Of a stretch of DNA of 64,000 bases, positions 13,021-40,500 are shown piece after piece. Position 1 is the stretch's first letter. Each line of letters starts with the position of its first letter. The notes beneath the pieces are model-generated. The model was not told the origin of the DNA, did not search any database, and was given only the letters and a program-made list of their open reading frames with translations. The position numbers and the translations under genes are program-made. The DNA is from a virus. The DNA lies in IMG/VR virus record IMGVR_UViG_3300045988_182880, positions 1-64,000 of that record. The stretch is one strand, 5' to 3'.

Positions 13021-13030
13021 GGTATCCTCC

Positions 13031-14491
13031 TTACAACTTTAACTGCCCCACACAACTCTGCGCAGTGGGCAGTAGTTTGTGGGTTATCTCGTTGCGGAAA
13101 TACTTAGGGTCCACGGCCCGCATCCCGAACCGCACACGGTCTAAAGCATCTGCATCCTTGAGAATCGTATATAGCAGCCACACCCGTTCTTTGTCCCGGA
13201 TATTGGATGCTTTGAGGTCTGCAAGAGCTTTGCGGTCGTCTAAGCAATGATATTCGATGAGGAAAGCAGTTGCCGAATTGCATTCGGGAACAGCATCATA
13301 ATAAATGTCATTGGACTTTGCTCCGTGACTGTCATCGACATCATCATTCGTCCGCCCAATATCATGATAAAGAATCGCATCACATAGCTGGTGGGATTCT
13401 TTTTTTGTTAAGGCAATGCCCTGAACCTGAACCAAAAGCAGCGCATCAAAGAGAACTCGCAGCGTATGCTCGGCGTCGTGCTCCTCATCATTAGCCCGGC
13501 CATAAGCATCATACAGAGTGGAAATGCGGCTCCGGTAGCGCTGGTAGAGAGGAAAGAACGCCTGAATTTCATCTGTCAGAGCGTTAATGCCGTATAGTGT
13601 ATCGACCTTTCTATCTTTTACGGCAGCCGGTGGGACAAGAACCTCTTTTTCTTCATCATTCGGAAAATACTCGATGATGTCACATTTGCTGACATGGGCA
13701 GTGATGATTCTGCTGTTCTCGAGACTCGGGATGCGGCAGGCAAAGAAACAGGCTACCTTGTAGCTTGTGGTCCAGGAGAAAGATTTCTCGTATGGAGTTG
13801 ATTTGCTTCCTTCCCCACGATAGATGGTCACAATATCTGGCAGGCTGGATAGCTTCTTTTCAGTGTTCTGCTTTTGTTTCTGAGACTTTCCAGAAAAGAC
13901 TTTCTGAAGGTTATCCTCTTTGAGAGCCGAGAACCCAAAATCACTGGTACGATAGAAGTCCAAAAAAAGTGCGTATAGATTCTCACCCGGACTGGACAAC
14001 TCAATGTATTTAGAAAGAACCGATACACGCAGGCTGTCTTCCAGGGAAAAGAGGTAGCCGCGAATGAAGGGGACGTTTCCCGATGAGATTTTCTCGGCCA
14101 TATCCAGAATTCTCTGCTGAAACTTTTCGTCCGATTCGCTGTTCACAGCCAGACGCTTGTCCCCGTAAATGTTCAGAGAGAGAACAATGGGAACGGTCGT
14201 GCTATCGAGCTCGCAATAATAGAGAGGAGCAAGCATATTGTGCGCAGCATAGATTCTGTCGACAGGAAGCCTCGGATACTTCTTAGCAAATTCGTTGGCC
14301 GTTAAGCCGACACTGTAGCCTTCTTTGTAGTACCGTTCAATATCCGCGCTCGTCTGCACTGCAGTGAGGGGTAGCATCGTCTCGAGACTTGCTTGGTTGA
14401 CGCTTACAAGAATATCCCCGACCGTCATTGTTTTTCGGACTTCCAACTTTTCACGGGTTGCCCCGTTACTCAGTATGGATTTCTGCTTCAT
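13031..14491 (-). CDS. Predicted R-S-E mono-ADP-ribosyltransferase fused to an HD phosphohydrolase domain (N-terminal 230 aa unknown)
   Basis: ART triad: TIYRGEG (Arg), SFSWTTS (STS-like) and NDEEKEVLVPP (E-x-E with the VL-P signature). HD motifs: EHTLRV, LYHDIGR, DSHGAKS, EYHCLDD and KDADALDR. Confidence 0.55.
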   Translation of the reverse strand: MKQKSILSNGATREKLEVRKTMTVGDILVSVNQASLETMLPLTAVQTSADIERYYKEGYSVGLTANEFAKKYPRLPVDRIYAAHNMLAPLYYCELDSTTVPIVLSLNIYGDKRLAVNSESDEKFQQRILDMAEKISSGNVPFIRGYLFSLEDSLRVSVLSKYIELSSPGENLYALFLDFYRTSDFGFSALKEDNLQKVFSGKSQKQKQNTEKKLSSLPDIVTIYRGEGSKSTPYEKSFSWTTSYKVACFFACRIPSLENSRIITAHVSKCDIIEYFPNDEEKEVLVPPAAVKDRKVDTLYGINALTDEIQAFFPLYQRYRSRISTLYDAYGRANDEEHDAEHTLRVLFDALLLVQVQGIALTKKESHQLCDAILYHDIGRTNDDVDDSHGAKSNDIYYDAVPECNSATAFLIEYHCLDDRKALADLKASNIRDKERVWLLYTILKDADALDRVRFGMRAVDPKYFRNEITHKLLPTAQSCVGQLKL

Positions 14492-14585: not shown

Positions 14586-15695
14586 TTATGAGGTGGCTGG
14601 CATAGCCAGCATGTCCATTCCTTTCTTTAGAATATTTTCTGCTGCATTTTTATCCCTATCGTGTGATGTATTACACTTCGGGCAGACCCAATGCCGCACG
14701 TTGAGGCTTTTAACCTCTTTGTTTTGGTATCCGCAGCAGGAACAGGTCTGGCTGCTTGGATAAAAGGTTGGTATTTTCACAACCACTCTTCCTGCCCAAC
14801 TAGATTTGTAATCAAGCTGTCGGAAGAACTCTCCCCAAGAAGCATCGGAAATGCTTTTAGCAAGGTTATGATTACGAACCATACCCTTTACATTGAGGTC
14901 TTCTACACAGATGATTTGGTTTTCTTTCACCAGTGTAGATGACAATTTGTGTAGGGTATCTTTTCGTTTGTTAGCTACTTTTTCGTGGCAGCGAACTACT
15001 TTGATGCGCTGCTTTTCCCAGTTGGCAGAGCCTTTCTTTTTGCGTGACAGCTTTTTCTGTTCGCGCTTTAGTTTAGCTTCCGCTTTCTGAAGATACTTAT
15101 GGTTTGGATGTTCGTTTCCATTGCTGTCAACAGCAAAAGATTTGATGCCAACATCCAAGCCGATAGCGGCATTCTTAACAGGAAGCGGTGCTACTTCTAC
15201 TTCGCAAAGAATGCTTACATAGTATTTTCCGCTTGCTGAACGACGGATTGTTGCCTTGCAAATACGACCTTCAATGTTGCGGCTTTTGCGATAGCGCACC
15301 TTTCCAAGTGTAGGAAGTTGAATGTACTTATCGTCAACTTTAATGCTTTTTGCTTTAGTAGTTGTATAACTTTCTTCTCCTCTTTTTCGTTTGAATTGAG
15401 GGAATCCTTTACCGTCTTTGAAAAAGCCTTTATAGGCATTATCTAACTGACGACAGCTATATTTGAGTGCTTGGCTATCCGCTTCAGCAAGCCAAGGAAG
15501 ATAGGTCTTCATCTGAGGAAGTAGATTTTGCGTATCAATATAGCTCATGCTTTCGCCGCGCCGCCTATAGGCTTTTATTCGCCTATCTAATATAGAGTTA
15601 TATATAAAGCGGCAGCAGCCGAGCGTTTTATTGATTTTTACTTCCTGCTCTTCTGTAGGCTCTAGCCGAAATTTATAGCCTTTATGTACTTTCAA
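14586..15695 (-). CDS. tnpB: TnpB (IS200/IS605 OrfB) RNA-guided nuclease
   Basis: The N-terminus [17 protein letters not shown] is the classic TnpB start. RuvC-I is [12 protein letters not shown] CxxC...CPKC zinc finger is present, and RuvC-III is [10 protein letters not shown]. Confidence 0.85.
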
Positions 15696-15900
15696 GGTGA
15701 TTCACCTCCTTTATGGATTTTTGTACTTGTGAATTGGTCAAACCCCCGGAAAAAGTTGAATAGCCTGTTTTTCTCCTCCCACAATTCTTTCTAACATAAT
15801 TATATCATATTTTACAGATGGACGGGCCAAAATCGCAACTTTGTTCATGAATACTTAACCTTTATGCACGAGATTTATTGTTGCCCTAATATATAAAACG

Positions 15901-15930
15901 AGAGCCCCGTCATCTTGGATGGGGCTCTTG
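15901..15930. terminator. Hairpin terminator GAGCCCCGTCATCTTGGATGGGGCTCTT
   Basis: Perfect 9-bp stem with flanking T/A runs. Confidence 0.4.
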
Positions 15931-16056
15931 AGTTGTAGCTGGAGGTGTATCTCATTTTGTGTCAGGGGTATTGTATGGTAGTTTTCGAAAATGAGTGCAA
16001 AAAAACAAACACCAGAAGTCAAACTCAAAAATATCTTAGTCTTGGCAAGTTTACCC

Positions 16057-16084
16057 TTGCGCCGCTGTGCGAACCTCATAAAAT
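16057..16084 (+). promoter_or_regulatory. Promoter with conserved GTGCGAA spacer box (box k): TTGCGC-16-TAAAAT
   Basis: The spacer cgCTGTGCGAAcctca is a member of the 11-copy motif family. Confidence 0.4.
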
Positions 16085-16223
16085 AGAAATTGTACAAGAG
16101 AAACGGCAAGAGACATTTGTAGTGATTGTAGTTGGTCGCCACGAATCGATGCCGTGTCTGCTTGCGCATAATTACCTCTTTTCGAAGCCCACAGGTCATT
16201 CTCTCACCTGTGGGTTTTGTTTA

Positions 16224-16252
16224 TTGCGGAATCGTGCGAATTGCAGACAATT
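16224..16252 (+). promoter_or_regulatory. Promoter with conserved box (a): TTGCGG-17-ACAATT, spacer aatcGTGCGAATTGCAg
   Basis: Motif family. It precedes the flotillin gene. Confidence 0.5.
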
Positions 16253-16344
16253 AAAGACAGAGCGATTGTGAGATGGGGCGATACCGATGCAGTAGGGATG
16301 AGAATCTTAGCAGCTAAAAAACTGAATGTGGAGAAATAAAAATT

Positions 16345-21393: not shown

Positions 21394-23549
21394 ATGGCAA
21401 GAAGGAAAACAAACGACTTGGAAAATCAGATGTCGCTCATGGACATGATTGCATCGGAAAGCCCCGAATATACCGAAGAAGGCCCGGAAGAACTCTTGGA
21501 CCCCGGCGAGGACATGGGGGACAGTGAAGGGCAGACGGATAAGCCCTTCAAACTCGTGGCGAACAAGACCACGAAGGCAAAGGTGAGCATCTCCACGCAG
21601 GCGCTGAATGTTGTGAAGGCGGTATATGCTGATACGGTCGAAACGAATTGGGAAGAGTTGTTTGACGGGTTCGACAGACTCTATGCTATCACTTTTTCGT
21701 CCGGTATCGAGTTCGTGAATAAGGTCATCAACAAGTTCTCGTATGCGGAAGTCGTGTTCGGCTGCGAGAAAATCATCGCCAACGACATCGCTGCCATCAT
21801 GTCGGTGCAAATCGACAGCGTGCAGCGGCTCGCTAAGTCTAAGTCGGCAGGGAACCTTGCGAACCGCCTCGATGACGGGTCCTTGCAGCTGTATGTATCG
21901 CGGGACACGAAATCGCACGAGAAAATCTTTATCTTGGAGAGCGCTGACCATAAGCGTGTCCGAGTCATCACCGGCAGTGCGAATATGTCGGCATCGGCGT
22001 TTTGCGGCATTCAGCGAGAGAATATCGTCTGCTTCGATGACGAGGCGGCATTTTCGCATTACAAGGTTCTGTTCGAGACCTTCAAGGAGACCTGCTCCGA
22101 CAATGTCTCCTATAAGGCAGTCGTGAACACCATGAACCAGGAAGATTATCTGAAAGAGAACATCAAAGAAGTGCCCGTCTTTCAGTCTATTGAAAAGCAG
22201 AAGCTTGTCTTTCTGGAACAGGCACAGCCTGAGGATGAGGTCGAATACGAGATAGTTGCCGATGTCAAGAAAATGCAGGAACTCGTCAAGCCAATCATGC
22301 CTAAGATGCCGGTACAGGCGAATCGTATTGTAGTGGCAGCGGAACCGATGCGCGTTTTCGGGAAACGATATACCGAGGTGCGGCGTGTGGCAGCTGAGGC
22401 AGTTAAGCAGCTCCCGAAATTACATATCGACTATGATGCCGGGACCATGACCTTCAACGACGAGAATATCGACCTCAATCCGAATCTCAGCGAGGTGGCA
22501 AAGAACATCGAGAGCATCCAGAAGTTCTTCTCAGGCATGGACTACTTTTACGGCGATGTCGAACAGGCCAAGAAGGACTACTTCAAGTACATGACCTGGT
22601 ATCTGGCTACCCCGTTCATGGCGTACCTTCGGTATTTTGCGTCAAGGAACAACTACGATACGAAGCTGTTCCCGATGTACGGCGTAATTTACGGTGACTC
22701 AAACGGCGGCAAGACGACCTTTATAAAATTTCTTGTCAAACTCATGTGCGGTGAGACCGTTAAGATGAACACGACGGAGGATTTCACAGCCACAAGAATC
22801 GACGGCCTCAAACGAGTTTGTGAGGGGCTGCCGCTGAACATCGACGACCTCGCCAAGACCCAGTTTCAGAACGGGTAATCAAGAACGATGAATGGGGTAT
22901 CTCGGACAGGCTCGTGAACTATCCTGCTGTATCTATCACATCGAATAAAATTACCTCGCTGACAAAAGACCTCTCGAAACGTGCTATCATCTGTCGAATT
23001 GGTGCTAAAATCGACAACGAGCGCGGTGCCAAGAACTCGAAGCGTGTGAATGAGAGTATGTCGGAGCTGACAACCGCGTTCTATGGCGAATATGTCCGCC
23101 GAATGCTTGTTTGCATCGATGAGATGACGACGGAAATGCGTGAAAATGCGAATGGCAAGGAATACTTCCCGGATATCTTCCACGCTTCGTCTAGTGTCAT
23201 TGCAGATATCTTCGAGGCATGCGGAATCGATTTGCCGGACTATGTGCGTATCCTGTACTATAACGACTATATGGGTGATGAGAGCATTGGTCGTGCTGCA
23301 ATTGAGAAAATCGAACTGGCATGGCAGGCTGACCCGAGCAAGTTCCGGGTTGATAAGAAGCAGAACAGGCTCATTTACTCCTATCCGCCGGATGGACCGT
23401 GGTACGAACTGAAATACATTGCAGATGAGCTGCCGAACTCCCTCGAAGCAGAGATTTCTGGCGGCAACCAGCTTATCATGAACTACGAGCAGGCACAGGA
23501 ATTGTTCGGCATCAAGTTTCGGCGCTGGCTGGGCATCTTTAACCTCTAA
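21394..23549 (+). pseudogene. P4/VirE-type primase-helicase-like P-loop protein, interrupted by an apparent frameshift near 22870 (ORFs 21394-22878 and 22914-23549)
   Basis: Walker A GDSNGGKTT is present. The downstream ORF's frame stays open upstream across the stop of the first ORF and overlaps it, which indicates a single disrupted gene. Confidence 0.5.
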
Positions 23550-23600
23550 TATGCATGGCAGGTTCTTTTCGGAGCCTGCCTTCTTATTTCGCAAAAATAG

Positions 23601-23629
23601 TTGCCCATTTGTGCGAATTGCAGACAATC
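23601..23629 (+). promoter_or_regulatory. Promoter with conserved box (c): TTGCCC-17-ACAATC, spacer atttGTGCGAATTGCAg
   Basis: Motif family. Confidence 0.5.
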
Positions 23630-23711
23630 AGAAATAAAGCGTAAAGCAAAGAAGCTGAGTACCATCTCAAAATTTGCAAGCAAAAAGTTGATTGAGCGAA
23701 ATTGGAATATC

Positions 23712-23984
23712 ATGAAAGACTACGGCAACGGCTATTCCATTGAGGAGCTTGCCGCAAAATACAGGTTGAGCGTCCGTACATGCTATCGAGCGTTAGACGA
23801 CGCGAAACAGAAGGCCAGAATTCAGTTGGCGCAGGTAGAGGATGCCAGAAAAGCTGAAATCCTTGCGGCATACAAGAACAGTGTCCCTCTCAAGGAAATG
23901 ATTGCGAAATTCAACGTGGCAGGTCAACAACCCCGCCTAAACCGGTTCGCCGGTTATAGACGGGGCTTGCGGGGCAACCCGTAA
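23712..23984 (+). CDS. Small protein with two HTH modules (GYSIEELAAKYRLSVRTCYRAL type)
   Basis: The HTH module resembles those of the 50455-52449 poly-HTH genes. The 3' end may be over-extended into the downstream structured RNA. Confidence 0.45.
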   Translation: MKDYGNGYSIEELAAKYRLSVRTCYRALDDAKQKARIQLAQVEDARKAEILAAYKNSVPLKEMIAKFNVAGQQPRLNRFAGYRRGLRGNP

Positions 23985-24289
23985 GCCCAGTTGATTAGCC
24001 TCAGTGAACGGTAACTTCGGTTGCTGCGAACTCCGTTATGCATTTGATGAGCAATCATCTTCATAATATAGGCACCCCGATATGCTCCACAAGTGTCGGG
24101 CTTTGCGGGCAGTGTATGTATCAATGGCGCAAGCCGTTGATATGTATTACGTTAAAAATCTCTAAGGGTAGGAGATGTGCGGCTGCCATGCCGAAAGGCT
24201 AAAACAGTGCATAACATTGGCGAAGTGGACCACAGGGCGCAAGCCCTGACTTATAGTTTCATTACTATTTTACGAAAGGAGTACCTTGC
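23985..24289 (+). ncRNA. Candidate IscB omega-RNA (structured, multiple GNRA-capped hairpins) 5' of the IscB-like gene
   Basis: Hairpins are present: cggGGCAAcccg, ggcGCAAgcc and gggcGCAAgccc, plus a further GC-rich stem (ggggcttgcgggg). The approximately 300-nt non-coding GC-rich region sits directly upstream of the RRXRR/HNH gene. Confidence 0.4.
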
Positions 24290-25687
24290 ATGAGCACTTG
24301 CGTTTGCGTTCTCAGCAACAGTGGTGAACGCTTAATGCCTACCTTCCGTCTTGGCAAGGTGCGCCATCTTCTGAAAGACGGAAAGGCTAAAATCGTTAAG
24401 CATCACCCGTTTACCATCCAGCTGCTGTATGACAGCAAAACGAACACGCAGCCTATTGAAATCTGCGAGGATGTGGGCTACAACTACATCGGCATCAGTG
24501 TGAAAAGTCAATCTCACGAGTATGTATCTGCTCAATATGATACATTACAGGACGAGAAAGCCTGCCACGACAGTTGTCGTAAGTTGCGCCGTACACGCAG
24601 AAACAGACTGCGTTACCGTAAACCGCGCTTCGATAACCGCAAGCGCGGCGAAGGTTGGCTTGCTCCTTCTTTGAGGCATAAGAAAGAACTCAATGTCAAC
24701 GTTGTCAAGATGTATTGTGCAGTAATGCCCATTACTCATGCAACAGTTGAGGTTGGTTCTTTCGACACAATGCTTGTAAAAGCAATTCAGGAAGGAAAAG
24801 CCATTCCTGAGGGAGCAGACTATCAAAAAGGTCCTCGCTACAATTTGGCAACCTTGCGTGAGGCAGTGTTCTACCGTGATAATTACACCTGCCAAGTTTG
24901 TGGACGCAAAGTCGCGGATGGTGCCATTTTACATATGCACCACATGTTCTACTGGAAAGGTCGTCACGGCGACAGCCTGAACGAACTTCTAACGGTATGC
25001 GAAAAGTGCCATACACCAGCTAACCATCAAAAAGGCGGTAAGCTTTATGGCTTCGGAGAAAATGTAAAGTTTGCCGACCTTTCCGGTGCGGCTTTTATGA
25101 ACACCGTTAGGTGGCAAATTGTCAATGAACTCTATGCTGCTTTTGGAAAAGATTTTGTCACCGTCACTTATGGCGCAATGACAAAAGAAAAGCGTATCGC
25201 ACTTCGACTTGAAAAAAGCCATAATAACGACGCGTATGCAATGGGCGAGTTTCATCCAAACTGCCGCTGTACGTTTGAACATTATGAAAAGGTAAGGCGT
25301 AATAATCGCATCCTTGAAAAGTTTTATGATTCTCGCTACATTGACATTCGTACAGGAGAAATAGCTACTGGAAAAGAACTCTTCAACGGTAGAATTAACC
25401 GTAACCACAAAAAGGATTCGGAAAATTTGCACAGATACCGTGGCAAGAGGACATACGCAGGGCATCGCGCTCTATTACGCAAAAAGGTAAACCTTAATCC
25501 GGGTGATTTAGTCTCTCTCAACGGAGAAGTTCTCGTTGTGCATAGCACTCATACCAATAAAAAGGGTGCTGTAAATGTAGAATTCAAAACACCCGGAAAA
25601 AGCGGTCAAAAATCTGCAAGCCTTAAAAAGCTTAAAATCGTAAAGACGACAGATTCCATGCATTCTGCATGGGAAAAAATATCTTAA
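24290..25687 (+). CDS. iscB: IscB-like RRXRR/HNH endonuclease with degenerate RuvC-I (IGISVKS instead of GIDPGS)
   Basis: PLMP-like N-terminus LSNSGERLMPTFRLGKVRHLLKDGKAKIVKHHPFTIQL. The bridge helix is RRTRRNRLRYRKPRF. The HNH motif is CQVCGRK...HMHH...CEKCH. RuvC-II is TVEVGSFD and RuvC-III is SHNNDAYAMG. Confidence 0.75.
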   Translation: MSTCVCVLSNSGERLMPTFRLGKVRHLLKDGKAKIVKHHPFTIQLLYDSKTNTQPIEICEDVGYNYIGISVKSQSHEYVSAQYDTLQDEKACHDSCRKLRRTRRNRLRYRKPRFDNRKRGEGWLAPSLRHKKELNVNVVKMYCAVMPITHATVEVGSFDTMLVKAIQEGKAIPEGADYQKGPRYNLATLREAVFYRDNYTCQVCGRKVADGAILHMHHMFYWKGRHGDSLNELLTVCEKCHTPANHQKGGKLYGFGENVKFADLSGAAFMNTVRWQIVNELYAAFGKDFVTVTYGAMTKEKRIALRLEKSHNNDAYAMGEFHPNCRCTFEHYEKVRRNNRILEKFYDSRYIDIRTGEIATGKELFNGRINRNHKKDSENLHRYRGKRTYAGHRALLRKKVNLNPGDLVSLNGEVLVVHSTHTNKKGAVNVEFKTPGKSGQKSASLKKLKIVKTTDSMHSAWEKIS

Positions 25688-25819
25688 TCATTTAAAGAAA
25701 GGAGTAGCAAGGTATTTGTGCTAACTGAGTACACTTCAAATTGCCTCTTGGTTAGCGCATTCCTCACCGCCTAAGTTAAGTCGCAAGCGACTATAGACGG
25801 TGTACCCTGCGCACATAAT

Positions 25820-26461
25820 TTGATGAAATGGATTGTGAAGCAAACCAAATCGAAAGGATATGAGTTCACCTTCGATATCGTGAAAGGCAAGGCCGTTATC
25901 GGGCAGGCACACTATATCCCGAAATTGCTACGGCAGGGTTATGGCATCCGGCTGAATGATTCCAAGTTCCTGCTGCAATACATGCCAGCTGCTGACGCAA
26001 GGGCGTACATGCGCGGCATCAACACGAAAGATATTCTGAGACACCCTTTTGCTATCCGTGAGAACAACTGCACGGTAGGCGAGATTTCCGTTGTACGCAC
26101 AAAGACCGGATTTCTCCAAGGATACAACTCTATTGCGATGCAGCTGTATGGCAAGGAGTACCAGAGCTACAAAATCGGCTTTGGAAGAGAAGGCATATGC
26201 TGCCCCGTATTTCTTGGCGGACAGCAAATTGCCCAAATCAACAAGAGTGCGGTAGTCAAGGATAATCTGGATGAATACCTGATTTACGCAGTGGATGAAA
26301 GAGCACTGCTGCCATCCGTCATGTTTGCTATCTACATTGACGGGATGTATTACTCGAACCGGGGTGTGTATGCGGAAGACGCGACAACTGTTAAGTGCGA
26401 GTACTGCCTGAATGAGGATGTCCTGTCTCACTATGACCCGAACTTCATCAAGGGGTTATAA
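25820..26461 (+). CDS. Hypothetical protein
   Basis: Long ORF in the operon context. Confidence 0.4.
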   Translation: MMKWIVKQTKSKGYEFTFDIVKGKAVIGQAHYIPKLLRQGYGIRLNDSKFLLQYMPAADARAYMRGINTKDILRHPFAIRENNCTVGEISVVRTKTGFLQGYNSIAMQLYGKEYQSYKIGFGREGICCPVFLGGQQIAQINKSAVVKDNLDEYLIYAVDERALLPSVMFAIYIDGMYYSNRGVYAEDATTVKCEYCLNEDVLSHYDPNFIKGL

Positions 26462-26494
26462 TTCCAACGCCTGGCATTCACAGACAATATCATG

Positions 26495-26523
26495 TTGCGG
26501 AACTGTGCGAATTGCAGACAATT
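26495..26523 (+). promoter_or_regulatory. Promoter with conserved box (d): TTGCGG-17-ACAATT, spacer aaCTGTGCGAATTGCAg
   Basis: Motif family. Confidence 0.5.
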
Positions 26524-26566
26524 AAAAACAGATGAATTACAAAAGCTACGCTACAGAGGATAAGCT

Positions 26567-27142
26567 ATGAGCTACGAACCTATTATAACACCGGGCAGGA
26601 ATTTTTTTCTTGTTTCAACGGAATATAAAGAGAGCTGCTCTGCCTGGTGCCGCAAGCAAATTGGCACGACACTGAGAACCTGTCAGGGACGAATTATCAT
26701 CATCGATGCGACGGGCGAGTATGCGAACCTGGCGCTTGACCATGACAGACTAATTCGAGAGAAGATTCCGTCCATCATTTACCGGTATAAGTTGGTGGAC
26801 GGGAAACCGTATCTTGCTCACGTCATTGAGGTCGATACGGAAGCAAATGAAGCGCCGCGCCTGATTGTATACGATATCAGCCGAACCTTAATCACCAGCT
26901 GGAAAGTCGGCGTGGAAGCCATCAATAAAATCCTGCAATCTTATGCCGTGATGCAGGACAATGAAATCGCATGGCTGTATGTTCCGTTGGACCTATATAC
27001 CAATGTCAAGCCCGAAAGCGAATCCTGGAACATCCTGGAACGAACCATCAAGGGCAATGAAGGAAAGCTCATGACGGTGCTAACAACACGAAAATTCAAT
27101 ATCGGTACAGTTCAGCGTTGTTTACATATGAATAAAGAATAA
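26567..27142 (+). CDS. Hypothetical protein
   Basis: ORF downstream of promoter box d. Confidence 0.4.
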   Translation: MSYEPIITPGRNFFLVSTEYKESCSAWCRKQIGTTLRTCQGRIIIIDATGEYANLALDHDRLIREKIPSIIYRYKLVDGKPYLAHVIEVDTEANEAPRLIVYDISRTLITSWKVGVEAINKILQSYAVMQDNEIAWLYVPLDLYTNVKPESESWNILERTIKGNEGKLMTVLTTRKFNIGTVQRCLHMNKE

Positions 27143-27158
27143 TATTGGAGGATATTAC

Positions 27159-28046
27159 ATGACAAACGAACAGTTGAGAATCGCATTGACGGCGAATGCC
27201 GTTACCAAACAGACCCGTAACCATTTTGGGTTCAGTGACCCGTGTGGGAAGACTCTGGAAGAGTACAACAAATCTTCAATGCTTTGCTGTGTGACGGCAG
27301 CGCAGAAAATGAACACGCCGGGTTTCGAGCGTGTCCTTGCTGCACAGATTTTCCCCTGCTTCACCATCGGCTGCTGGAACCAGACGAAGACGGTCTATGA
27401 TTTTGACTACGAGTTCCAGAAAATTCTTATGGATACGGATGACATGGCAATTCATCAGGATATCCTGCAGCGGCTTCCGATTCGTGATTTCTTTATCCCG
27501 GTGTATGACAGCTACGACTACAACGGTATGTTCGTGCATGTGGAATTCGAAGAGAAAGAGAAGACCACTGCTTTCGGCATCGTTCTTGTCGGCCCGGCCA
27601 AAGGCAGCCATGATGATTTCACGTTCCTGACTCTGCCTGCCTGGGCCAAAGAAAACCAGAGCTTGACGGAAGCAACTCGGAGCACGAAAGAATACCTGGA
27701 AAAGGCGGCCGGGCAGCGGCAGGTAAATGGTATCAGCGTTCCGGCTGTGATGGAAGCAGTTCCTTCGGTCTTTGACGGCGGCACGCCTTATGTTCGCCTG
27801 GCAATCCTGTGTGCCTACTATCTTGCCAGTAAGAGCCCTGATGTCCGCTTGGAAACTTCCAAAAAGCGTGACCGCCCGGTATTCGTGTTCCAAGGGAAAG
27901 CACAACGCATCAACGTCAAGGCATATACCGTTGGTGAGAATGCGGCCAAAGAATACAAGAAGAACGGGGAAGGCAAAACTCCTCGCTGGCGGCATTACTG
28001 GTGCGGCAATGGCCGGGAACGTCGGGAATGCAAATTCATCTATTGA
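27159..28046 (+). CDS. Hypothetical protein
   Basis: GGAGG RBS. Long ORF. Confidence 0.45.
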   Translation: MTNEQLRIALTANAVTKQTRNHFGFSDPCGKTLEEYNKSSMLCCVTAAQKMNTPGFERVLAAQIFPCFTIGCWNQTKTVYDFDYEFQKILMDTDDMAIHQDILQRLPIRDFFIPVYDSYDYNGMFVHVEFEEKEKTTAFGIVLVGPAKGSHDDFTFLTLPAWAKENQSLTEATRSTKEYLEKAAGQRQVNGISVPAVMEAVPSVFDGGTPYVRLAILCAYYLASKSPDVRLETSKKRDRPVFVFQGKAQRINVKAYTVGENAAKEYKKNGEGKTPRWRHYWCGNGRERRECKFIY

Positions 28047-28064
28047 TGGGATGAGGTAAATATC

Positions 28065-28772
28065 ATGGCTTCCCATACTTATCAGGACCCGATTGGGTTC
28101 TATGAATGGTTCGATGACCTTCCTTATGCTATCCAGGATAGTATTCTGAAACACCTGCCGCATATCGAAGGCGAGGAATGGTTCATCGTCATTATCTTTG
28201 CCGCTCTTATTCTAATGATTCTGGTTTCAGCGTATCTGGGCTTTGCAAGACATAATGTCAAAAAAACGAGTGAACGACTCAACGCTTTGAAAGAACTGAA
28301 CAACACGACTGAATTCATGCCGGTCGAGGCGCAGTACCGCTACTATCTACGTTCTGATACGAAGCTGGAATACGAGGAGTTCTCGCTCCCAAAATTCTTC
28401 CGCCGTGAAGTGAGGGAAAATTTCAAGCTGTACAATACCTTGCTTGGCAATGCTCGAGCGAACACAGTGCTATATGAAACCTATGGCCGTGAAATCCAGG
28501 AACTCCCGGATTGGACAGAATCGGATGACGATTGTGGACGGCATATCCCATTCTTTCTCTACCACAACATCGAGAAGGAACTGTACGATGAAACGGTTCT
28601 GGATTGTCCCGTGACAACTCCTGAATTCATCTGCACGAAAAGCTATCTGCCCAAAGACGCTAAGAATCCGATTGAGATGGAAGAGACCTATACGCTGGAG
28701 GAACTGGAAGAGTACATACGCCGCTTGAAGGTTGCAGCCGATGTCAAGAAGAACAGCCAGAACGCAGGCTGA
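28065..28772 (+). CDS. Hypothetical membrane-anchored protein (1 TM)
   Basis: Hydrophobic segment WFIVIIFAALILMILVSAYLGF. Confidence 0.4.
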   Translation: MASHTYQDPIGFYEWFDDLPYAIQDSILKHLPHIEGEEWFIVIIFAALILMILVSAYLGFARHNVKKTSERLNALKELNNTTEFMPVEAQYRYYLRSDTKLEYEEFSLPKFFRREVRENFKLYNTLLGNARANTVLYETYGREIQELPDWTESDDDCGRHIPFFLYHNIEKELYDETVLDCPVTTPEFICTKSYLPKDAKNPIEMEETYTLEELEEYIRRLKVAADVKKNSQNAG

Positions 28773-30014: not shown

Positions 30015-32210
30015 ATGATTACAACAAAGAAGATTGACCCACGGCCATATCAGCAGAAAGCTGCTGCGGCGATTCACAGAGAGTGGGATGCCGGAAATAA
30101 GAAAACGCTGGTTGTGATGCCGACCGGAACCGGCAAAACTATTGTGTTTGCAAGCATCGTGAACGACCAGGTGGCAAAGGGCGAACACGTTTTGATTCTT
30201 GCGCACCGGGAAGAGCTTTTACAGCAGGCAAGCGACAAGCTCAAGATGGTGACGGGGCTAGAGACCGCGTTAGAGAAAGCGCAAAGCTCGGCGCTCGATT
30301 CCGATAAGATGGTCGTGGTTGCCAGTGTACAGACTCTCTCTAAGCAGAATCGGTTAATGAAGTATCCGCGTGATTATTTCGGGACTATCATCATTGATGA
30401 AGCGCATCACACGGCAGCCAAAACTTACAAGGGAATTCTCGAGCATTTCATCGATGCCAAAGTGTTGGGCGTGACCGCAACACCCGACCGAAGCGACATG
30501 AAATCCCTATCTGATATCTTTGATAGTCTTGCATTTGAATATAAGCTTCCGGATGCGATTCGGGAAGGGTATCTCTGCAAAATTAACACGAAGACAATTC
30601 CGGTCGAGGTAGACATCAGCAAGGTTCATATCAATGCCGGTGATTTCAGTGCTCAGGACCTCGGCAATGTTCTTGACCTGTATCTGGACACGATTGCGGA
30701 TGCCATTGTGCGAGAATGCCAGAACCGAAAGACTGTCATCTTTACGCCTCTGGTACGAATCAGCAAAAGACTGTGCAATATCCTCAATAAGCGAAACTTC
30801 AAGACCGCAGAAGTCAATGGCGCGTCTGCGGACCGTGAGGACGTTCTGAAAGGGTTTGACAATGGCGAGTACAAGGCGCTGACGAACGCGATGCTCCTGA
30901 CGGAAGGTTGGGATTGCCCGACCGTTGACTGTATCATCTGCTTGCGTCCTACCAAGAGCCGCAGCCTGTATGCGCAGATTGTGGGACGCGGAACACGTCT
31001 GTGTGAAGGGAAAAAGAATCTTCTCGTGCTGGATTTCCTGTGGCTGACAAAGAAACATAGTCTTTGCCATCCTGCTGATATTTTCTGTGAAGACCAGGAA
31101 GTGGCACAAAAGACCACCGATATGCTGGCGGATGCGGCACTCACCGGTTCGAATAGCCAGGAGAATTTCGGGAGTCCTGAATTGGGGCTGATTGAGGCAA
31201 TCGAGGAAGCACAGACTGAGCTGGACGAGGAAAAGCGGAAAGCACTGTGTGAACTCGAAAAGCAGGATACGATTCAGCGCAAGCTCCAGGCACAGCGTCA
31301 AAAGCCGAGAGGATTGGTTGACCCGCTGCAGTATATCTTCAGCATCGAAGCGCCGGAACTCAACGACTATCAGCCGATGTTCGAGAGTGAAAAGCAGGAG
31401 CCGTCCGATGAAATCATCGATAACATCTCGTCTTTCGGCGTGAAAGGCAGTGCCATCAAATCTCAGGGCCTTGCCGAGGCAATTTTCAAACGACTCATTG
31501 CTCGCAGAGCCAGCGGAATGGCTACCCCGAAACAGATTCGGTGTCTTGAAAGTTTCGGGTTCGTCCATGTTGGGCGCTGGACATTGCGCTATGCAAGCAG
31601 CTTTTTGGACATCATCAGTTCTCATGACTGGAAACTTCCGAATGGGTTTGACGCATCCACGCTAGACCCGGAAAAGAATACGGCAGAAGACCTCGCCAAG
31701 CTGTATCCAGACTACAAGGAGGATGAGACGAAGAAAGCACCGCGTGGGGATGCTTTCATCTGCTGCTACTACGATGCAAGCTATAATTTAGCACGCAAGA
31801 AAGTCTGCAACAGTGAAAAAGAAATGCTGAATCTGTATTATTCGCTTTTCAACAATTGCGAAGCAAAGTGCTTCTATTTCACGAAAGAGGCGGATGCCTG
31901 GATGGCAGAAAAACAGAATCTGATTGCCAGAAAGACCGGAACACCGATTCCTGCCGCACAGCCGACTCAGGCAACACCCGCAGTACCGCCTCCCTTTGTC
32001 CCGGCAGCTCCCGCCAAGAGCCACGAATATTATTGCTGCCTTGCCCGATGGGATGGGTCCTACATTGGCTATGAGATTTACAAGAGTGAGCAGGCAGCTC
32101 AGAATGCCCGAAAGCAGATTGCCCGGCGCGGTGAGACGGCAGTGTATGCCACAGTAGAGGAAGCTGAAGCGTGGGTTGACAAGCAGAAGGCCGCAAGAAC
32201 CAGGAGGTAA
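30015..32210 (+). CDS. SF2 DEAD/DEAH-box helicase (type III restriction Res-like) with C-terminal tandem RNase H1-type hybrid-binding-like repeats
   Basis: Helicase motifs are I MPTGTGKT, II IIIDEAHH, III GVTATPDR and VI QIVGRGTR. The C-terminus has two repeats ending FTKEADAWM and VEEAEAWV, resembling the Cauli_VI / RNase H1 N-terminal domain. Confidence 0.7.
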   Translation: MITTKKIDPRPYQQKAAAAIHREWDAGNKKTLVVMPTGTGKTIVFASIVNDQVAKGEHVLILAHREELLQQASDKLKMVTGLETALEKAQSSALDSDKMVVVASVQTLSKQNRLMKYPRDYFGTIIIDEAHHTAAKTYKGILEHFIDAKVLGVTATPDRSDMKSLSDIFDSLAFEYKLPDAIREGYLCKINTKTIPVEVDISKVHINAGDFSAQDLGNVLDLYLDTIADAIVRECQNRKTVIFTPLVRISKRLCNILNKRNFKTAEVNGASADREDVLKGFDNGEYKALTNAMLLTEGWDCPTVDCIICLRPTKSRSLYAQIVGRGTRLCEGKKNLLVLDFLWLTKKHSLCHPADIFCEDQEVAQKTTDMLADAALTGSNSQENFGSPELGLIEAIEEAQTELDEEKRKALCELEKQDTIQRKLQAQRQKPRGLVDPLQYIFSIEAPELNDYQPMFESEKQEPSDEIIDNISSFGVKGSAIKSQGLAEAIFKRLIARRASGMATPKQIRCLESFGFVHVGRWTLRYASSFLDIISSHDWKLPNGFDASTLDPEKNTAEDLAKLYPDYKEDETKKAPRGDAFICCYYDASYNLARKKVCNSEKEMLNLYYSLFNNCEAKCFYFTKEADAWMAEKQNLIARKTGTPIPAAQPTQATPAVPPPFVPAAPAKSHEYYCCLARWDGSYIGYEIYKSEQAAQNARKQIARRGETAVYATVEEAEAWVDKQKAARTRR

Positions 32211-32790: not shown

Positions 32791-33282
32791 ATGATTCGAT
32801 TCAGAAAAGATACCCCTCGCTATTGGTTTATGAGCAACTATTACCCTTGCGAATTTGTGATGAATGGGATTCGTTACAAGAACGCCGAGGCAGCATTCCA
32901 GAGTCACAAGGTCCCGCTGGAAGAGCGCAGACAGTTTGCGGACATGCCACCGGCTTCTGCCAAGCGTTTTGGCCGCAATGTGGCTATCCCCGCAAACTGG
33001 GACAAAACTCGGGACGATGTAATGCGCCGCGTGGTGATGGCTAAATTCGAACAGAATGAAGACCTCAAGCAGCGTCTCCTCGAAACGGGTACGCAGCCTA
33101 TTGAGGAAGATACCACCAGCTGGCATGACAACTATTGGGGCAACTGCCACTGTCCGAAATGCCGGAACATCCCAGGCCAGAATCGGCTTGGAACTATTCT
33201 GATGGAAACGAGGGATAAATTGAAAAAGCAAGCTGGCAGCCTACACGATACCGGGAATGCGTTCGGAAGGAACGACCTATGA
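32791..33282 (+). CDS. NADAR (YbiA-like, DUF1768) ADP-ribosyl hydrolase family protein
   Basis: It aligns along its full length to E. coli YbiA. The N-terminal WFMSNYYPCEFVMNGIRYKNAEAAFQSHK block matches the NADAR motif and a conserved AKFEQN is present. The C-terminal GQNRLGTILMETRDKL matches YbiA GKNRLGYLLMELREQL. Confidence 0.85.
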   Translation: MIRFRKDTPRYWFMSNYYPCEFVMNGIRYKNAEAAFQSHKVPLEERRQFADMPPASAKRFGRNVAIPANWDKTRDDVMRRVVMAKFEQNEDLKQRLLETGTQPIEEDTTSWHDNYWGNCHCPKCRNIPGQNRLGTILMETRDKLKKQAGSLHDTGNAFGRNDL

Positions 33283-33808
33283 TGTTCCGACTTACTCGGC
33301 ACTGAAAGGTGCAATGGATTCTATCTACAAACATGTCGGTATGGAAGCAATTCCTTCGGCAGTGTACATTCACTCTCCCATTAAAAAGACCCGTATCCTG
33401 CTGCGAAACATTGAGAATATCGGAGGAATACGGTCCCGCGAATGCTTAACGGATGTTTGCTACACGGTCGTTGTACGAATCGTGAGAATGGACAACATGG
33501 CCTTGGAGAGTGACCTCGCAGTGCAGTACAGAAATTTCTTAGAATATGTTTCCGATAGCTGTGGGATGGGATATCCGTATCTTGGCGTGATGGAAACACC
33601 CATGTATTTTCATCCTGTGGCGGAAACGGAAATTCTTCCAACACTGCCCATTACCGCTGACTTGTGCAATATGCCTTTGACACCGGATTATACGAACAAA
33701 TTTGAACCGGATTTGGTTTGTAGGCATCTTCACATTGAGAATGGTATCATCGATTTTACGAAAGGGGAGTATTTTCGCTGCTATGGATATTCTGAATGCG
33801 CTGGTTAA
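33257..33808 (+). CDS. cas5: Cas5 (Cas5d/Cas5c, type I-C family), N-terminally short; overlaps NADAR gene by 26 nt
   Basis: TYDVPTYSALKGAMDSIY matches Cas5d SYSVPTYQALKGIAESIY, and DVCYTVVVRI matches DVHYQVKAHF. An in-frame stop at 33221-33223 fixes the start. Confidence 0.7.
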   Translation: MRSEGTTYDVPTYSALKGAMDSIYKHVGMEAIPSAVYIHSPIKKTRILLRNIENIGGIRSRECLTDVCYTVVVRIVRMDNMALESDLAVQYRNFLEYVSDSCGMGYPYLGVMETPMYFHPVAETEILPTLPITADLCNMPLTPDYTNKFEPDLVCRHLHIENGIIDFTKGEYFRCYGYSECAG

Positions 33809-35729
33809 GCACTATGATGCGATGGCAGCAGCTGGAAATGCAACGCCTTTCGGCTGGACACACAAGTTTGCTCAGTATGCCGTCGAACTAAACGATGACG
33901 GGGAAATCGATAGGATTTTCGCTCTCGGTGATTTATCCGATAAAAAGAACAAAGGCGAGGAATTCGAGATGCCAACACGCAGGCCACGGTCTGGCAAGCT
34001 GCCGATTCCGTATGTGTTCTGTGATGATGCGGAACATCTTCTCGGCAAAGTCGGTGAAGCGAGCAATCTTGTTCGATACACTATGATGCGCGACGCAGTC
34101 TTTATGCTGCGTGACCTGTTGGGACATTCTAAAGCCTTAGATGTCGTCTACAAGTTCTACGAAACGTGGGACCCAGAAAAGGCGCTTGACAATAAATGTG
34201 TCAGCGACGTAATGGAGGCGAAAGGCCAGGAAAAGAAAACCTTTATCCTGTTCTACAATGGCGTTCCAGTTTTTGATGATGAGACATTTCGCAAAAGCTA
34301 TGCGGCGATTGTCAATAAATATGGGGAAATGCCGATTGATACACTCAAGGGCGGTGAAATTGCTCTGTTGCCGGAACCTATCAGGATTCGAAGCATGATA
34401 AGCGGCAATATCGGGTTTAAGGCTCGCTTGTTTCGAGCCATCACGGCATGGGGAAACAAAAAGAATGGCCCGGTCACAAACACTCTTTTGTCCAACAACA
34501 AAGCAAACACCGAGTATTTCGGACGTCAGCAGGGCAACGCCATCCCCATCACAATGCAAGATGAACATAAGATTTACGAAGCGGCTACAGATTTGCTCAG
34601 CTCCAAGCATCGGTTTTCGGTCCCGGTCACTTCACAGTCGCTTTATTCAAAGAACCAAATCATCTGGTCGGATGATATGCCGACAAAGCTAGAAGACGCG
34701 GTCATTGACCTGTGCTGCTGCCGTAGTGATAAAGCCAAAATTATCTCTCAGGCAAATGAATCGGGTTCTGAGACCACTATCAGAATCCTTGAAAAAGCAA
34801 AACTCTATCAGGGACGAATCACGGTTCTTTCGGACACTGAAAAAAACTTAGTCGTCAACGTTTGGAATCTTGATATGAATGATAAGGGATGTTCTGCATC
34901 CAGCTTTACACAGATGACGCTTGGCGAGCTGCTTGGAAACTTTGCCAAGCATTACACTGACATGGAAATTGACCGAAGCCAGACTTGCCGAGATGCGGAT
35001 GGAACCAGCCGAGATTTTGCAAGAGCCATCAACATCTACAACTCACTTTTCGCCAAGAACAGTGATGGAAGCACGAATTCTTTCAACAACGCTCTTTGGA
35101 AACAACTGAGTATCAGCATTTATTCCGGAACAAAGTATCCGGAGCAAGTCCTTTCCCTGGCACTGCTTCGGTCCTGCCGTTTGCTTCAGCAAAATAAGAA
35201 AGGCAAAGAAAATCGCATCACGGCGTCTTTGGCCGGTATCACAAAAGCGTTCTTGATTCGCAATTACGGGGAGAATATGACCATGGGACTCGACCAGAAC
35301 AACACCAGTCCTGCTTATATCACGGGACGAATCTTCGCGCATATGGAAAGTGCGCAGAGAAAGATTGACCCCAACAACCAAACCACTTACGCTAAACGGT
35401 TCTTTGAGCGAGTTATGATGAACCCGGCAAAAACCATGCCGGAGCTTCACAAGAGTTTCCTTCTTTTGAAGAACAAGGCTAAAGCGAATGGCATGAGAGG
35501 TCTTTATAATTCCTGCGACAAGAAAATTATGGCTCTTATCGATATGCTGGATGGCAACTATCCCGACCATCTATCCGAAAAGCAAAAAGGTGAATATCTC
35601 GTCGGATACTATCAGCAGCGAAGCGCAAACATCAAGGATGCCGAGGAGAAGAAAAACCGGAAAGCCGCCAAAATTGAAACTAATAATACGGATACTGCGA
35701 CAACCGTTGCAACACAAAAGGAGAAGTAA
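33783..35729 (+). CDS. cas8c: Cas8c (Csd1) large subunit, type I-C
   Basis: AAAGGGGAG RBS before the ATG at 33783. MDILNALVKHYDAM...PFGW...ELNDDGEI...PIPYVFCDDAEHLLG matches the Cas8c N-terminal consensus ILQALYDYYER...P.G...iD.dG...vP...lwD...YvLG. Confidence 0.8.
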   Translation: MDILNALVKHYDAMAAAGNATPFGWTHKFAQYAVELNDDGEIDRIFALGDLSDKKNKGEEFEMPTRRPRSGKLPIPYVFCDDAEHLLGKVGEASNLVRYTMMRDAVFMLRDLLGHSKALDVVYKFYETWDPEKALDNKCVSDVMEAKGQEKKTFILFYNGVPVFDDETFRKSYAAIVNKYGEMPIDTLKGGEIALLPEPIRIRSMISGNIGFKARLFRAITAWGNKKNGPVTNTLLSNNKANTEYFGRQQGNAIPITMQDEHKIYEAATDLLSSKHRFSVPVTSQSLYSKNQIIWSDDMPTKLEDAVIDLCCCRSDKAKIISQANESGSETTIRILEKAKLYQGRITVLSDTEKNLVVNVWNLDMNDKGCSASSFTQMTLGELLGNFAKHYTDMEIDRSQTCRDADGTSRDFARAINIYNSLFAKNSDGSTNSFNNALWKQLSISIYSGTKYPEQVLSLALLRSCRLLQQNKKGKENRITASLAGITKAFLIRNYGENMTMGLDQNNTSPAYITGRIFAHMESAQRKIDPNNQTTYAKRFFERVMMNPAKTMPELHKSFLLLKNKAKANGMRGLYNSCDKKIMALIDMLDGNYPDHLSEKQKGEYLVGYYQQRSANIKDAEEKKNRKAAKIETNNTDTATTVATQKEK

Positions 35730-35731
35730 CA

Positions 35732-36694
35732 ATGTCTGAACTCGTTAAGAATCCTATCACCATTGTTCTAGCGTTTGATGCGCAGAACTGTAATCCCAAT
35801 GGGGACCCCGACAACGACAACAACCCGCGTCAGTTTGAGGATGGAATCGGGTACATGTCGTCCGAAAGCATCAAATATAAGATTCGCAGCTACATCCGTG
35901 ACAAGGTCTTGTTTGACGGTCTGGAAAAGAACAGCTATGCACTATATTGCAGCCCCGATACTTTTTCCATTGAGCGCAGCGTTAAAGAGTGCCTGGAGCC
36001 TATCATCGGCAAAAAAACCAAAGGCATCCCCGATGACCAACAGCTGGAGGCTTATAAAGAGCTGTGCCGGTACTACTATGATACTCGCATGTTTGGGCTT
36101 GTGAATACGAGTTATTCCAACTGCAGCCTTCTAAGCCGCATCAAGGGTGCCTGCCAGGTATCTATGCCGATGTCCTATGACCCTATCGAAATCATCCCGA
36201 TGACGATTACTCGCTGCTGCGTTGCTTCCGATGCTGAACGCAAAGGCGAAGATAAAGGCGCCAAGAAGGGCGTCAGTATCGACGAAAGCGACGATGGAGC
36301 CGAAAAGAAGACGAAAGACCGCATGATAGGCCGTCGAAGCATTATCAGATATGGGCTGTATCACATGAGCATTCAAATCAACAGTGCAATGGCACAGCGT
36401 AACGGTGTTACGATGGATGACGTTAATTTGTTGATTGATGCGCTGCAGCATATGTTCGAGGAAGATATGAGCTCCAGCAGAGCCCTAACGCTGCGTAAGT
36501 TGATTGTCGTTGAGCACACCAAACCGATGGGAAATGCTTATCGGGACACCATTGAGCGGGCACTGGCGGCTCGACTGAAGCAACCTAATGATGCACCTAC
36601 ATCTTATGAGGATTACGAGGTGACTTATCACCGCGAAATGCTGCCTGATGAGGTCAAGGTGACTGAGTATAATTATAACAGTCAAAGCGTTTGA
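35732..36694 (+). CDS. cas7: Cas7 (Csd2) backbone subunit, type I-C
   Basis: IVLAFDAQNCNPNGDPDNDNNPRQFEDGIGYMSSESIKYKIRSYI carries the hallmark NPNGDPD...PR...G...S...KRKIR motif of Csd2/DevR. Confidence 0.85.
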   Translation: MSELVKNPITIVLAFDAQNCNPNGDPDNDNNPRQFEDGIGYMSSESIKYKIRSYIRDKVLFDGLEKNSYALYCSPDTFSIERSVKECLEPIIGKKTKGIPDDQQLEAYKELCRYYYDTRMFGLVNTSYSNCSLLSRIKGACQVSMPMSYDPIEIIPMTITRCCVASDAERKGEDKGAKKGVSIDESDDGAEKKTKDRMIGRRSIIRYGLYHMSIQINSAMAQRNGVTMDDVNLLIDALQHMFEEDMSSSRALTLRKLIVVEHTKPMGNAYRDTIERALAARLKQPNDAPTSYEDYEVTYHREMLPDEVKVTEYNYNSQSV

Positions 36695-39825: not shown

Positions 39826-40134
39826 TTATTACTGCCGATGAGAGGGGGTGTATCAAGCGCAGCTTCAGGACGTTGCGCATTGTTTTCCAACACAAATAAA
39901 ATCACAAATCGGAAAATCCTTCTGAATATCACATAACAAATATCAGACATATGCCCACATAGGCAGAAAGGAATTACAACCCCTGCGCCGGGAAAGCCCA
40001 CTCCGTGAGGGGTGGGATGAAAGGCGCGTTGGAAATTTCAAGAAATTCATAAGGTGTTAACCGATTTTGTAGCAATTTGTGGTATAATATGCTATATGAT
40101 TAGAGATTATAGACGAACTGCAACAACTGTGTCT

Positions 40135-40500
40135 ATGGTGAATTATCATTTTGTGTTTTGCCCGCGCTATCGAAGAAAAATATTCTTAATAGATGGTGTA
40201 GAAGCGCGATTCAAAGAACTTGTACACCAAATTTGCGAGCAAAACGATTTTGATATATTAGCTATGGAATGCTACATTGACCATTGCCACTTGTTTTTGA
40301 ATGTTCCTCCAACAGTAAGTCCCTCTGATGTCATGCGTATCATTAAAACGAATACATCAAGGGTGCTGCTCAAGGAATTTTCTGAAGCAATTAAAACAAA
40401 AACCATTTGGACACGCAGTTATTTTGTCAGTACCGCCGGTGATGTATCTGCTGCTATGATACGCCGCTATATAGAAACCCAAAAGACTCGAGGTGTGTAA
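40135..40500 (+). CDS. tnpA: IS200/IS605 TnpA (Y1 HUH transposase)
   Basis: MVNYHFVFCPRYRRKIF, HUH motif DHCHLFL, and catalytic Tyr region RSYFVSTAG. An extended -10 TGGTATAAT lies upstream. Confidence 0.8.
   Translation: MVNYHFVFCPRYRRKIFLIDGVEARFKELVHQICEQNDFDILAMECYIDHCHLFLNVPPTVSPSDVMRIIKTNTSRVLLKEFSEAIKTKTIWTRSYFVSTAGDVSAAMIRRYIETQKTRGV

Follow-up and report, generated by a model that had tools for sequence, protein, structure and literature searches.

The 64,000-nucleotide stretch of viral DNA analysed here (IMG/VR record IMGVR_UViG_3300045988_182880, positions 1 to 64,000; hereafter the window) carries a gene for an RNA-guided nuclease of the IscB type, preceded directly and on the same strand by a structured RNA. 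To the left of this RNA lies the truncated 5' part of a phage regulator gene, and to the right of iscB a hairpin and a short conserved terminus lead into the next gene; the positions are collected in Table 1. A sequence-only reading of the locus had taken the protein for an IscB-like nuclease in which serine stands in place of the catalytic aspartate of RuvC-I (GIDPGS to GISVKS), and hence for a natural HNH-only nickase or binding-only derivative. Alignment with solved IscB structures leads us to a different view of the RuvC site, and comparison with related loci indicates that the gene and the RNA together form a mobile element.

The IscB protein and its catalytic residues

The assignment of the protein to IscB stands, with NCBIfam, Pfam and phmmer in agreement. 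It matches the NCBIfam equivalog model NF040563 (guided_IscB, 'RNA-guided endonuclease IscB') with 266.8 bits, compared with a cut-off of 175 bits, over residues 5–318 and positions 1–313 of the 314 in the model. Pfam places RRXRR (PF14239, 154.5 bits) at residues 5–181 and HNH (PF01844, 28.1 bits, cut-off 21.4) at residues 201–243. The top phmmer matches among all Protein Data Bank (PDB) chains are solved IscB proteins (E values of 1e-33 to 1e-30), including OgeuIscB (7xht, 7utn and 8csz). The alignment to OgeuIscB spans only residues 4–318, and the C-terminal region of about 140 residues (approximately 320–465) is without significant phmmer alignment to any solved chain. That the protein has an HNH domain rules out IsrB, the HNH-less relative of IscB. 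Cas9 and a type II CRISPR (clustered regularly interspaced short palindromic repeats) system are likewise ruled out: the 64 kb window has no repeat array, the protein is only 465 residues long and Cas9-like chains match weakly, with E values of 3e-6 or worse.

Most of the motifs listed in the sequence-only reading were recovered. The translation contains an N-terminal motif of the PLMP type (RLMP, residues 14–17) and an RRXRR bridge helix (RRTRR, residues 100–104). The HNH domain is intact, with zinc cysteines Cys201, Cys204, Cys237 and Cys240 and a catalytic His218 that aligns with His247 of OgeuIscB. RuvC-II and RuvC-III are also retained: Glu154 is aligned in the pair VEVGSF and LELNRF, and His311 and Asp314 in the pair KSHNNDAY and KDHYLDAY (window and OgeuIscB, respectively). 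We take the catalytic residues of OgeuIscB to be Asp61, Glu193, His247, His340 and Asp343, the partners of Asp61, Glu154, His218, His311 and Asp314 in the window protein.

The disputed position is RuvC-I. In the phmmer alignment the window segment IEICEDVGYNYIGISV pairs with the RuvC-I segment of OgeuIscB, and the longer stretch TQPIEICEDVGYNYIGISVKSQSHE pairs with the RuvC-I region together with the strand that follows it. The aspartate of LVLGIDPGR in OgeuIscB is aligned to Asp61 of IEICEDVGY in the window protein (codon GAT, 24470–24472). The string YIGISVKSQ, residues 66–74, is aligned to NIGMSVVTE in the strand after RuvC-I, with GISVKS (residues 68–73) opposite GMSVVT. A different aspartate thus occupies the catalytic position, seven residues upstream of the segment that had been picked. 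On this alignment the catalytic aspartate of RuvC-I is Asp61, in a CEDVGY variant of GIDPGS, and the proposed substitution is a misalignment.

Conservation points the same way. In an alignment of 20 homologues (64–95% identity) the invariant residues include Cys59, Glu60, Asp61 and Gly63 around RuvC-I, Cys201, Cys204, His217, His218, Cys237, Cys240, Asn245 and His246 in the HNH domain, and His311 and Asp314 in RuvC-III; Glu154 of RuvC-II is kept in 19 of the 20. The ratio of nonsynonymous to synonymous substitution rates (dN/dS) of iscB measured against ten other copies is 0.07–0.10, with dS reaching 1.2, which marks strong purifying selection on the gene.

The claim of a natural nickase falls because GISVKS was misaligned and Asp61 is the RuvC-I aspartate. 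It is easy to see how the reading arose, since the string YIGISVKSQ does exist and superficially resembles G-I-D-P-G-S, and the real motif is atypical and easily overlooked by eye. Three solved IscB sequences nevertheless place Asp61 at the catalytic aspartate and GISVKS at GMSVVT, and the invariance of Glu60, Asp61 and Gly63, the retention of Glu154, His311 and Asp314 and the low dN/dS would be unexpected for a RuvC-dead lineage; we give an aspartate-to-serine change in RuvC-I almost no credence. The protein is best described as a conserved IscB with all of its catalytic residues present, apparently a fully active nuclease.

We note one homologue cluster (P0004, 484 member sequences) which has a lysine in place of the RuvC-II glutamate (ATVKVGSF). 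In contrast to the window protein, this cluster is a possible candidate for a genuine RuvC-inactive variant inside the family.

The omega-RNA

The region upstream of iscB had been proposed to be an omega-RNA on the strength of its GCAA hairpins. It is indeed structured, with a minimum free energy of −144 kcal/mol (z = −5.9 compared with shuffled sequences) and three GCAA-capped hairpins: GATGA-GCAA-TCATC (24047–24060), CAATGGC-GCAA-GCCGTTG (24122–24139) and CAGGGC-GCAA-GCCCTG (24233–24248). A covariance-model search identifies it as HEARO (Rfam RF02033), with a match at 23923–24235 that covers the full model (1–211) at 60.6 bits and E = 3.4e-11 and ends 55 nt before the ATG; a scan at the Rfam gathering threshold missed the RNA, and the match was recovered in E-value mode. 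By homology to this model, the structured RNA is the known IscB omega-RNA. Its scaffold starts at 23923, which is 62 nt upstream of the start at 23985 given in the sequence-only reading, and overlaps the 3' end of an open reading frame (ORF) at 23601..23984.

An RNAalifold consensus of 22 copies contains 77 base pairs, 16 of which show compensatory double changes; covariation backs the core helices and the GUCAAC helix at the 5' end, all of them conserved. The same alignment reveals two lineage-specific hairpin insertions inside existing stems, both capped by GCAA: one of 17 nt at approximately 24044–24060 and a helix extension of about 36 nt at approximately 24112–24150. Both are common to at least ten copies found at several different sites. 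The terminal hairpin at 24233–24248 is also conserved and lies 3' of the Rfam model; Meers et al. likewise observed that downstream elements are missing from RF02033 (PMC10055086). The guide is represented in Table 1 as 16 nt, a length assumed from OgeuIscB.

Boundaries, ends and flanking motif of the element

We found 148 relatives of the protein in IMG/VR, several contigs having two copies, and kept 80 loci, with which positions 23300–26400 of the window were compared by blastn. In copies at other sites the homology to the window begins at 23922/23923 and ends at 25817–25836, and the invariant scaffold start GTCAAC is adjoined on the left by at least 18 sequences unrelated to one another. 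With at least 18 insertion sites, the element is mobile. Both ends carry, on the same strand, a subterminal compound hairpin of shared architecture (CxCCG-CC-TAA...TATAGA-CGGxG). Inverted terminal repeats and a target duplication are absent (flanks GTGGCAG and GATGAA). By the form and alignment of its ends, the segment from 23923 to approximately 25821 is a 1.9 kb non-autonomous element of the IS200/IS605 type which lacks TnpA.

The right boundary is near-exact, with 25822–25827 ambiguous in the window copy; for a sister subfamily it is fixed by the clean empty site of the copy in contig L060. The pentamer adjoining the right end is ATGGA at seven distinct sites and ATGAA at three, the variants being AATGA, ATGAT and ATGTA. 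The empty sites of the L060 copy and of the copy in contig L157 are scarless, the left flank being followed directly by ATGGA or ATGAA. The alternative that the ATGGA/ATGAA of the right flank belongs to the element was rejected for the sister subfamily, as the L060 empty site already has ATGGA at the left flank. We infer that the ATGRA flanking motif is the target-adjacent motif (TAM) of this IscB, because the TAM of GstIscB, TTCAT (PMC10055086), is the reverse complement of ATGAA.

A second subfamily (L065–L079) shares the omega-RNA and the first 385 or so codons with the window copy and differs in the C-terminal domain and the right end, the homology to the window stopping at 25446. It has ATGAA at all three of its distinct sites, compared with ATGGA at most right ends of the window type. 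It would seem from this that one module, made up of the TAM-reading domain and the transposon end, was exchanged between the subfamilies.

Table 1. Features of the IscB locus, with positions in the window
Feature	Position	Strand	Evidence
Truncated 5' part of phage helix-turn-helix (HTH)/Mor-like regulator gene	23712..23922	+	Pfam HTH_28/HTH_23/Mor
Inferred guide AAATTCAACGTGGCAG, host-derived flank directly 5' of the scaffold	23907..23922	+	Flank variation among copies; empty alleles
Omega-RNA scaffold (HEARO RNA), doubling as left end of the mobile element (the inverted right end, RE, in TnpA terms)	23923..24250	+	Rfam; covariation; homology boundary
Left subterminal compound hairpin CCCCG-CC-TAA-(ACCGGTTCGCCGGT)-TATAGA-CGGGG	23931..23965	+	Sequence; right-end hairpin alike
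Shine-Dalgarno sequence AAGGAG, 8 nt before the iscB ATG	24276..24281	+	Sequence; invariant in 21 of 22 aligned copies
iscB gene, 465 residues	24290..25687	+	NCBIfam; Pfam; phmmer; conservation; dN/dS
Right subterminal compound hairpin CACCG-CC-TAAGT(TAAGT)-(GTCGCAAGCGAC)-TATAGA-CGGTG	25765..25802	+	Sequence
Terminal 19 nt of the element, TACCCTGCGCACATAATTT	25803..25821	+	Conserved 19 nt spacing from hairpin foot to flank
Right flank GATGAAATGGA with ATGAA and ATGGA, candidate TAM (ATGRA); gives the downstream gene its ATG	25822..25832	+	Right-end alignment; empty alleles

Polymorphism of the insertion site

The reading frame of the truncated regulator continues into the omega-RNA and reaches a stop at 23984. 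The uninterrupted allele, which encodes 156–161 residues, is found in L079 (4463..4948) and in 14 of the 17 related IMG/VR contigs, and reads AAATTYAACGTGGCAG followed directly by AAGGATATTGC. The element is present in three of the 17, including the closest match of the window, contig 182793. In the empty alleles the 16-mer that precedes the scaffold in the window copy is followed by AAGGAT; it is exact in two of them and has one mismatch in twelve. On the right, the junction falls at the ATG of the next gene.

Compared with the three contigs L001–L003, which have the same insertion, the left flank and the element of the window are 0.4–1.1% diverged and the right flank (25822–28687) is 8–10% diverged. 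This step in divergence indicates recombination beside the element, with a mosaic junction to its right.

The transposase question

The only Y1 transposase gene in the window (Y1_Tnp, 40054–40500, E = 7.7e-37) belongs to an element whose end hairpins, CCCACTCCGTGAGGGGTGGGA, are unrelated to those of the IscB element; we tested for shared ends between the two and the hairpins differ. This second element is IS605-like and extends from 39995 to 42409. Its tnpA overlaps an ORF of 516 residues (40493–42043) that has no Pfam match, and its hairpins CCCACTCCGTGAGGGGTGGGA and CCCACTCCGTAAGGGGTGGGA are near-identical. Two overlapping ORFs beside a TnpB gene, 15858–16199 (minus strand) and 15945–16268 (plus strand), were considered as TnpA and proved to be wrong, the Y1 transposase being the gene at 40054–40500.

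A closer likeness to the IscB ends lies elsewhere. Exact matches of 15 and 12 nt to the left-end hairpin of the IscB element occur on the minus strand at 9988–10035, just 3' of the TnpB gene at 8463–9923 (plus strand). On the basis of these matches the TnpB element (8463–10035) and the IscB element appear to have one common end type, and they presumably use one common TnpA.

Proposed mechanism and alternatives

In our view, the segment from 23923 to approximately 25821 is very probably one copy of a non-autonomous IS200/IS605 element that codes only for a catalytically intact IscB and its omega-RNA. The omega-RNA of IscB needs transcription from outside the element (Meers et al.; PMC10055086), and here the truncated HTH/Mor-like gene is the likely source of transcription into the guide and the omega-RNA. 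Transcription entering from this interrupted gene would yield an RNA with a host-derived 5' guide of about 16 nt, AAATTCAACGTGGCAG, joined to the scaffold. IscB would bind this RNA and recognise guide-complementary DNA with a 3' TAM of the ATGRA type, and both strands would be cut, one by HNH and the other by RuvC (Asp61, Glu154, His311 and Asp314). A Y1 TnpA supplied in trans would recognise the end hairpins and insert the element 5' of ATGRA on this strand. Cutting of element-free sites, such as excision joints or co-infecting phages with the uninterrupted gene, would then lead to repair from an element-bearing genome, and this repair would both retain and spread the element.

Several observations weigh against this interpretation. 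A cognate TnpA was looked for in the window and none was found, the lone Y1 gene having different hairpins. The HEARO score of the window copy is below the Rfam gathering score of 83; sister copies without the two hairpin insertions score 88.7–96.1 bits, above this value, so the low score is due to the insertions and not to loss of the core. The right-end hairpin contains a private 5 nt tandem duplication, TAAGT (25772–25781), which is absent from L001–L003 and from all other copies and might impair the mobility of the window copy. The pentamer that follows the guide match in the uninterrupted allele is AAGGA, one mismatch from ATGRA, and as a consequence cleavage of that allele is uncertain. 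The AlphaFold2 model, built with the 20-sequence alignment, is poor (mean predicted local distance difference test score, pLDDT, of 51; predicted template modelling score, pTM, of 0.37), which is too low for the geometry of the RuvC site to be inspected, although residues 401–450 reach a pLDDT of approximately 77–88 despite the low overall confidence.

The insertion itself is also not simple. Between its flanks approximately 217–222 nt of the host gene are absent (window 23923–25821 compared with L079 4692–4913), and adjacent losses of 8 and 61 nt occur at two other sites, those of the L005 and L020 types. All three lost segments have a TAM-like pentamer (AAGGA, GAGGA or ATGTA) at their start, and a good ATGRA follows directly after their end. 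The simplest explanation would be recombination between two copies at neighbouring TAMs; the losses may instead have originated by homing or co-conversion. A search of IMG/VR for the single-insertion parent alleles gave two unrelated chance matches for the first pattern and none for the second, and there are no closely spaced tandem copies in the fetched loci.

The alternative that survives best holds that spread or retention is driven mainly by homing or competition between co-infecting phages, a 'non-restorative homing' without TnpA, in which IscB programmed by the left flank cuts the uninterrupted Mor-like gene of a rival and repair copies the element along with the adjacent deletion. Much at this locus would suit it: a single phage group is polymorphic for the insertion (three of 17 contigs occupied), the guide-matching 16-mer of the empty alleles is followed by the TAM-like AAGGA, the window holds no cognate TnpA and the family is very abundant in IMG/VR phage contigs, where it is also multi-copy. 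The absence of the empty-allele sequence from the occupied allele at three sites, with its TAM-like start and the TAM after it, and the recombination beside the element would fit as well, and a 2026 review terms phage-to-phage transposon homing theoretical (PMC13565253). However, end hairpins of the TnpA type and at least 18 unrelated sites that all adjoin ATGRA need a transposase and not homing. AAGGA is off the consensus TAM, of the 14 empty alleles 12 have a mismatch to the guide, recombination between two nearby copies explains the adjacent deletions equally well and neither of the predicted single-insertion parent alleles was found in IMG/VR. We therefore consider homing very unlikely to be the main driver.

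A broader proposition also seems to us unlikely, namely that TnpA-less IscB elements may spread in large gut phages because genomes free of the element are cut under RNA guidance when phages co-infect, and the element is then copied in by recombination. If it were true, the adjacent sequence loss would be a footprint of homing, and would also re-programme the guide, directing it at a new site next to a TAM in the genomes of rivals.

It is scarcely credible that the window copy is a decaying, immobile relic, with insertions in its omega-RNA, a guide flank changed by deletion and a disrupted right-end hairpin: a HEARO score under the gathering threshold, the sequence deleted beside the element and the private TAAGT duplication would suit such a relic, but the ORF is intact and its product 99–100% identical to copies in other contigs, dN/dS is approximately 0.09, the omega-RNA insertions form hairpins that recur in copies at several sites and nuclease function is independent of the right-end hairpin.

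Comparison with known systems

A non-autonomous IS200/IS605-type element with an intact IscB puts this system among the ordinary representatives of the IscB/omega-RNA/IS605 kind. The protein shares with OgeuIscB and the IscB family the order PLMP, RuvC-I, bridge helix (RRXRR), RuvC-II, HNH, RuvC-III and putative C-terminal domain. All of the catalytic residues align, and the omega-RNA, whose 5' end is the guide, directly precedes the gene on the same strand. It differs from OgeuIscB in its RuvC-I motif (CEDVGY rather than GIDPGR/S), in its length (465 compared with 496 residues), in the C-terminal region of about 140 residues that does not align with solved chains and in its longer omega-RNA scaffold of approximately 328 nt, which has two extra hairpins. 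Relative to HEARO RF02033, the window RNA matches the full model in the expected position and orientation, but has the hairpin insertions of 17 and about 36 nt and the extra 3' hairpin at 24233–24248.

In the IS605-family IscB elements of Geobacillus stearothermophilus, the transposon RE is the origin of the scaffold, the guide is taken from beyond the element and the genes upstream are co-oriented (PMC10055086). The window element is likewise a non-autonomous unit of IscB and omega-RNA with the scaffold as its RE, a guide supplied by the flank, a co-oriented upstream gene and the TAM at the far end, and empty homologous sites correspond to the guide plus TAM target. In contrast to those elements, it is carried by large gut phage genomes in place of a bacterial chromosome, a cognate TnpA was looked for in the window and not found, and host sequence is missing beside several of the insertions.

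A phage-borne IscB is not new, because full-length tblastn matches exist in deposited phage records (Clostridium phage c-st, Clostridioides phage pCD1602_4, and Staphylococcus and Ralstonia phages). Their identity to the window protein is at most 38%, and their annotations go no further than 'HNH endonuclease' or 'hypothetical protein'.

Had RuvC been dead by nature in this IscB, the protein would have been a ready-made compact nickase and a case of functional divergence; that claim fails. The value that remains is a typical IscB orthologue with an unusual CEDVGY motif, for which the omega-RNA boundaries, the element ends and a probable ATGRA TAM have been defined in silico; the family to which it belongs is multi-copy and very abundant among the genomes of large phages of the human gut. 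For homing by obligate mobile element-guided activity (OMEGA) systems between co-infecting phages, a process still treated as theoretical in the 2026 review (PMC13565253), a natural data set is also provided by one phage gene that is sampled in both occupied and empty form, the empty alleles matching the guide.

Genomic context

The closest match to the window is the 183 kb IMG/VR contig 3300045988_182793, in which IscB is 100% identical and window positions 23300–26400 are 98% identical. The locus has no blastn match among GenBank phages. The genes listed in the window include Mor-like late activators, a tail protein, helicases, TnpB transposases, type I-C Cascade genes and an array of transfer RNA (tRNA) genes. 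The omega-RNA had been said to lie on the same strand as three TnpB genes and Cascade; this holds only in part, the TnpB gene at 14586–15695 being on the minus strand. Beside that gene are two adjacent minus-strand ORFs of 514 and 486 residues (11476–14491) with no Pfam match.

The type I-C-like Cascade occupies 33257–36694, with a Cas5 fragment match, Cas8c/Csd1 (E = 3.5e-69) and Cas7 (E = 1.4e-53), and helicase genes lie at 30015–32210 and 37105–39825; no CRISPR array was detected anywhere in the window. Fifteen tRNA genes lie on the plus strand between 55684 and 61741, as is typical of large phage genomes. The first of these (55684–55756) is preceded at a distance of 4 nt by a ribozyme resembling that of hepatitis delta virus (HDV), at 55599–55679 (Rfam HDV-F-prausnitzii, 48.4 bits, gathering score 44), and a similar pair occurs in L059.

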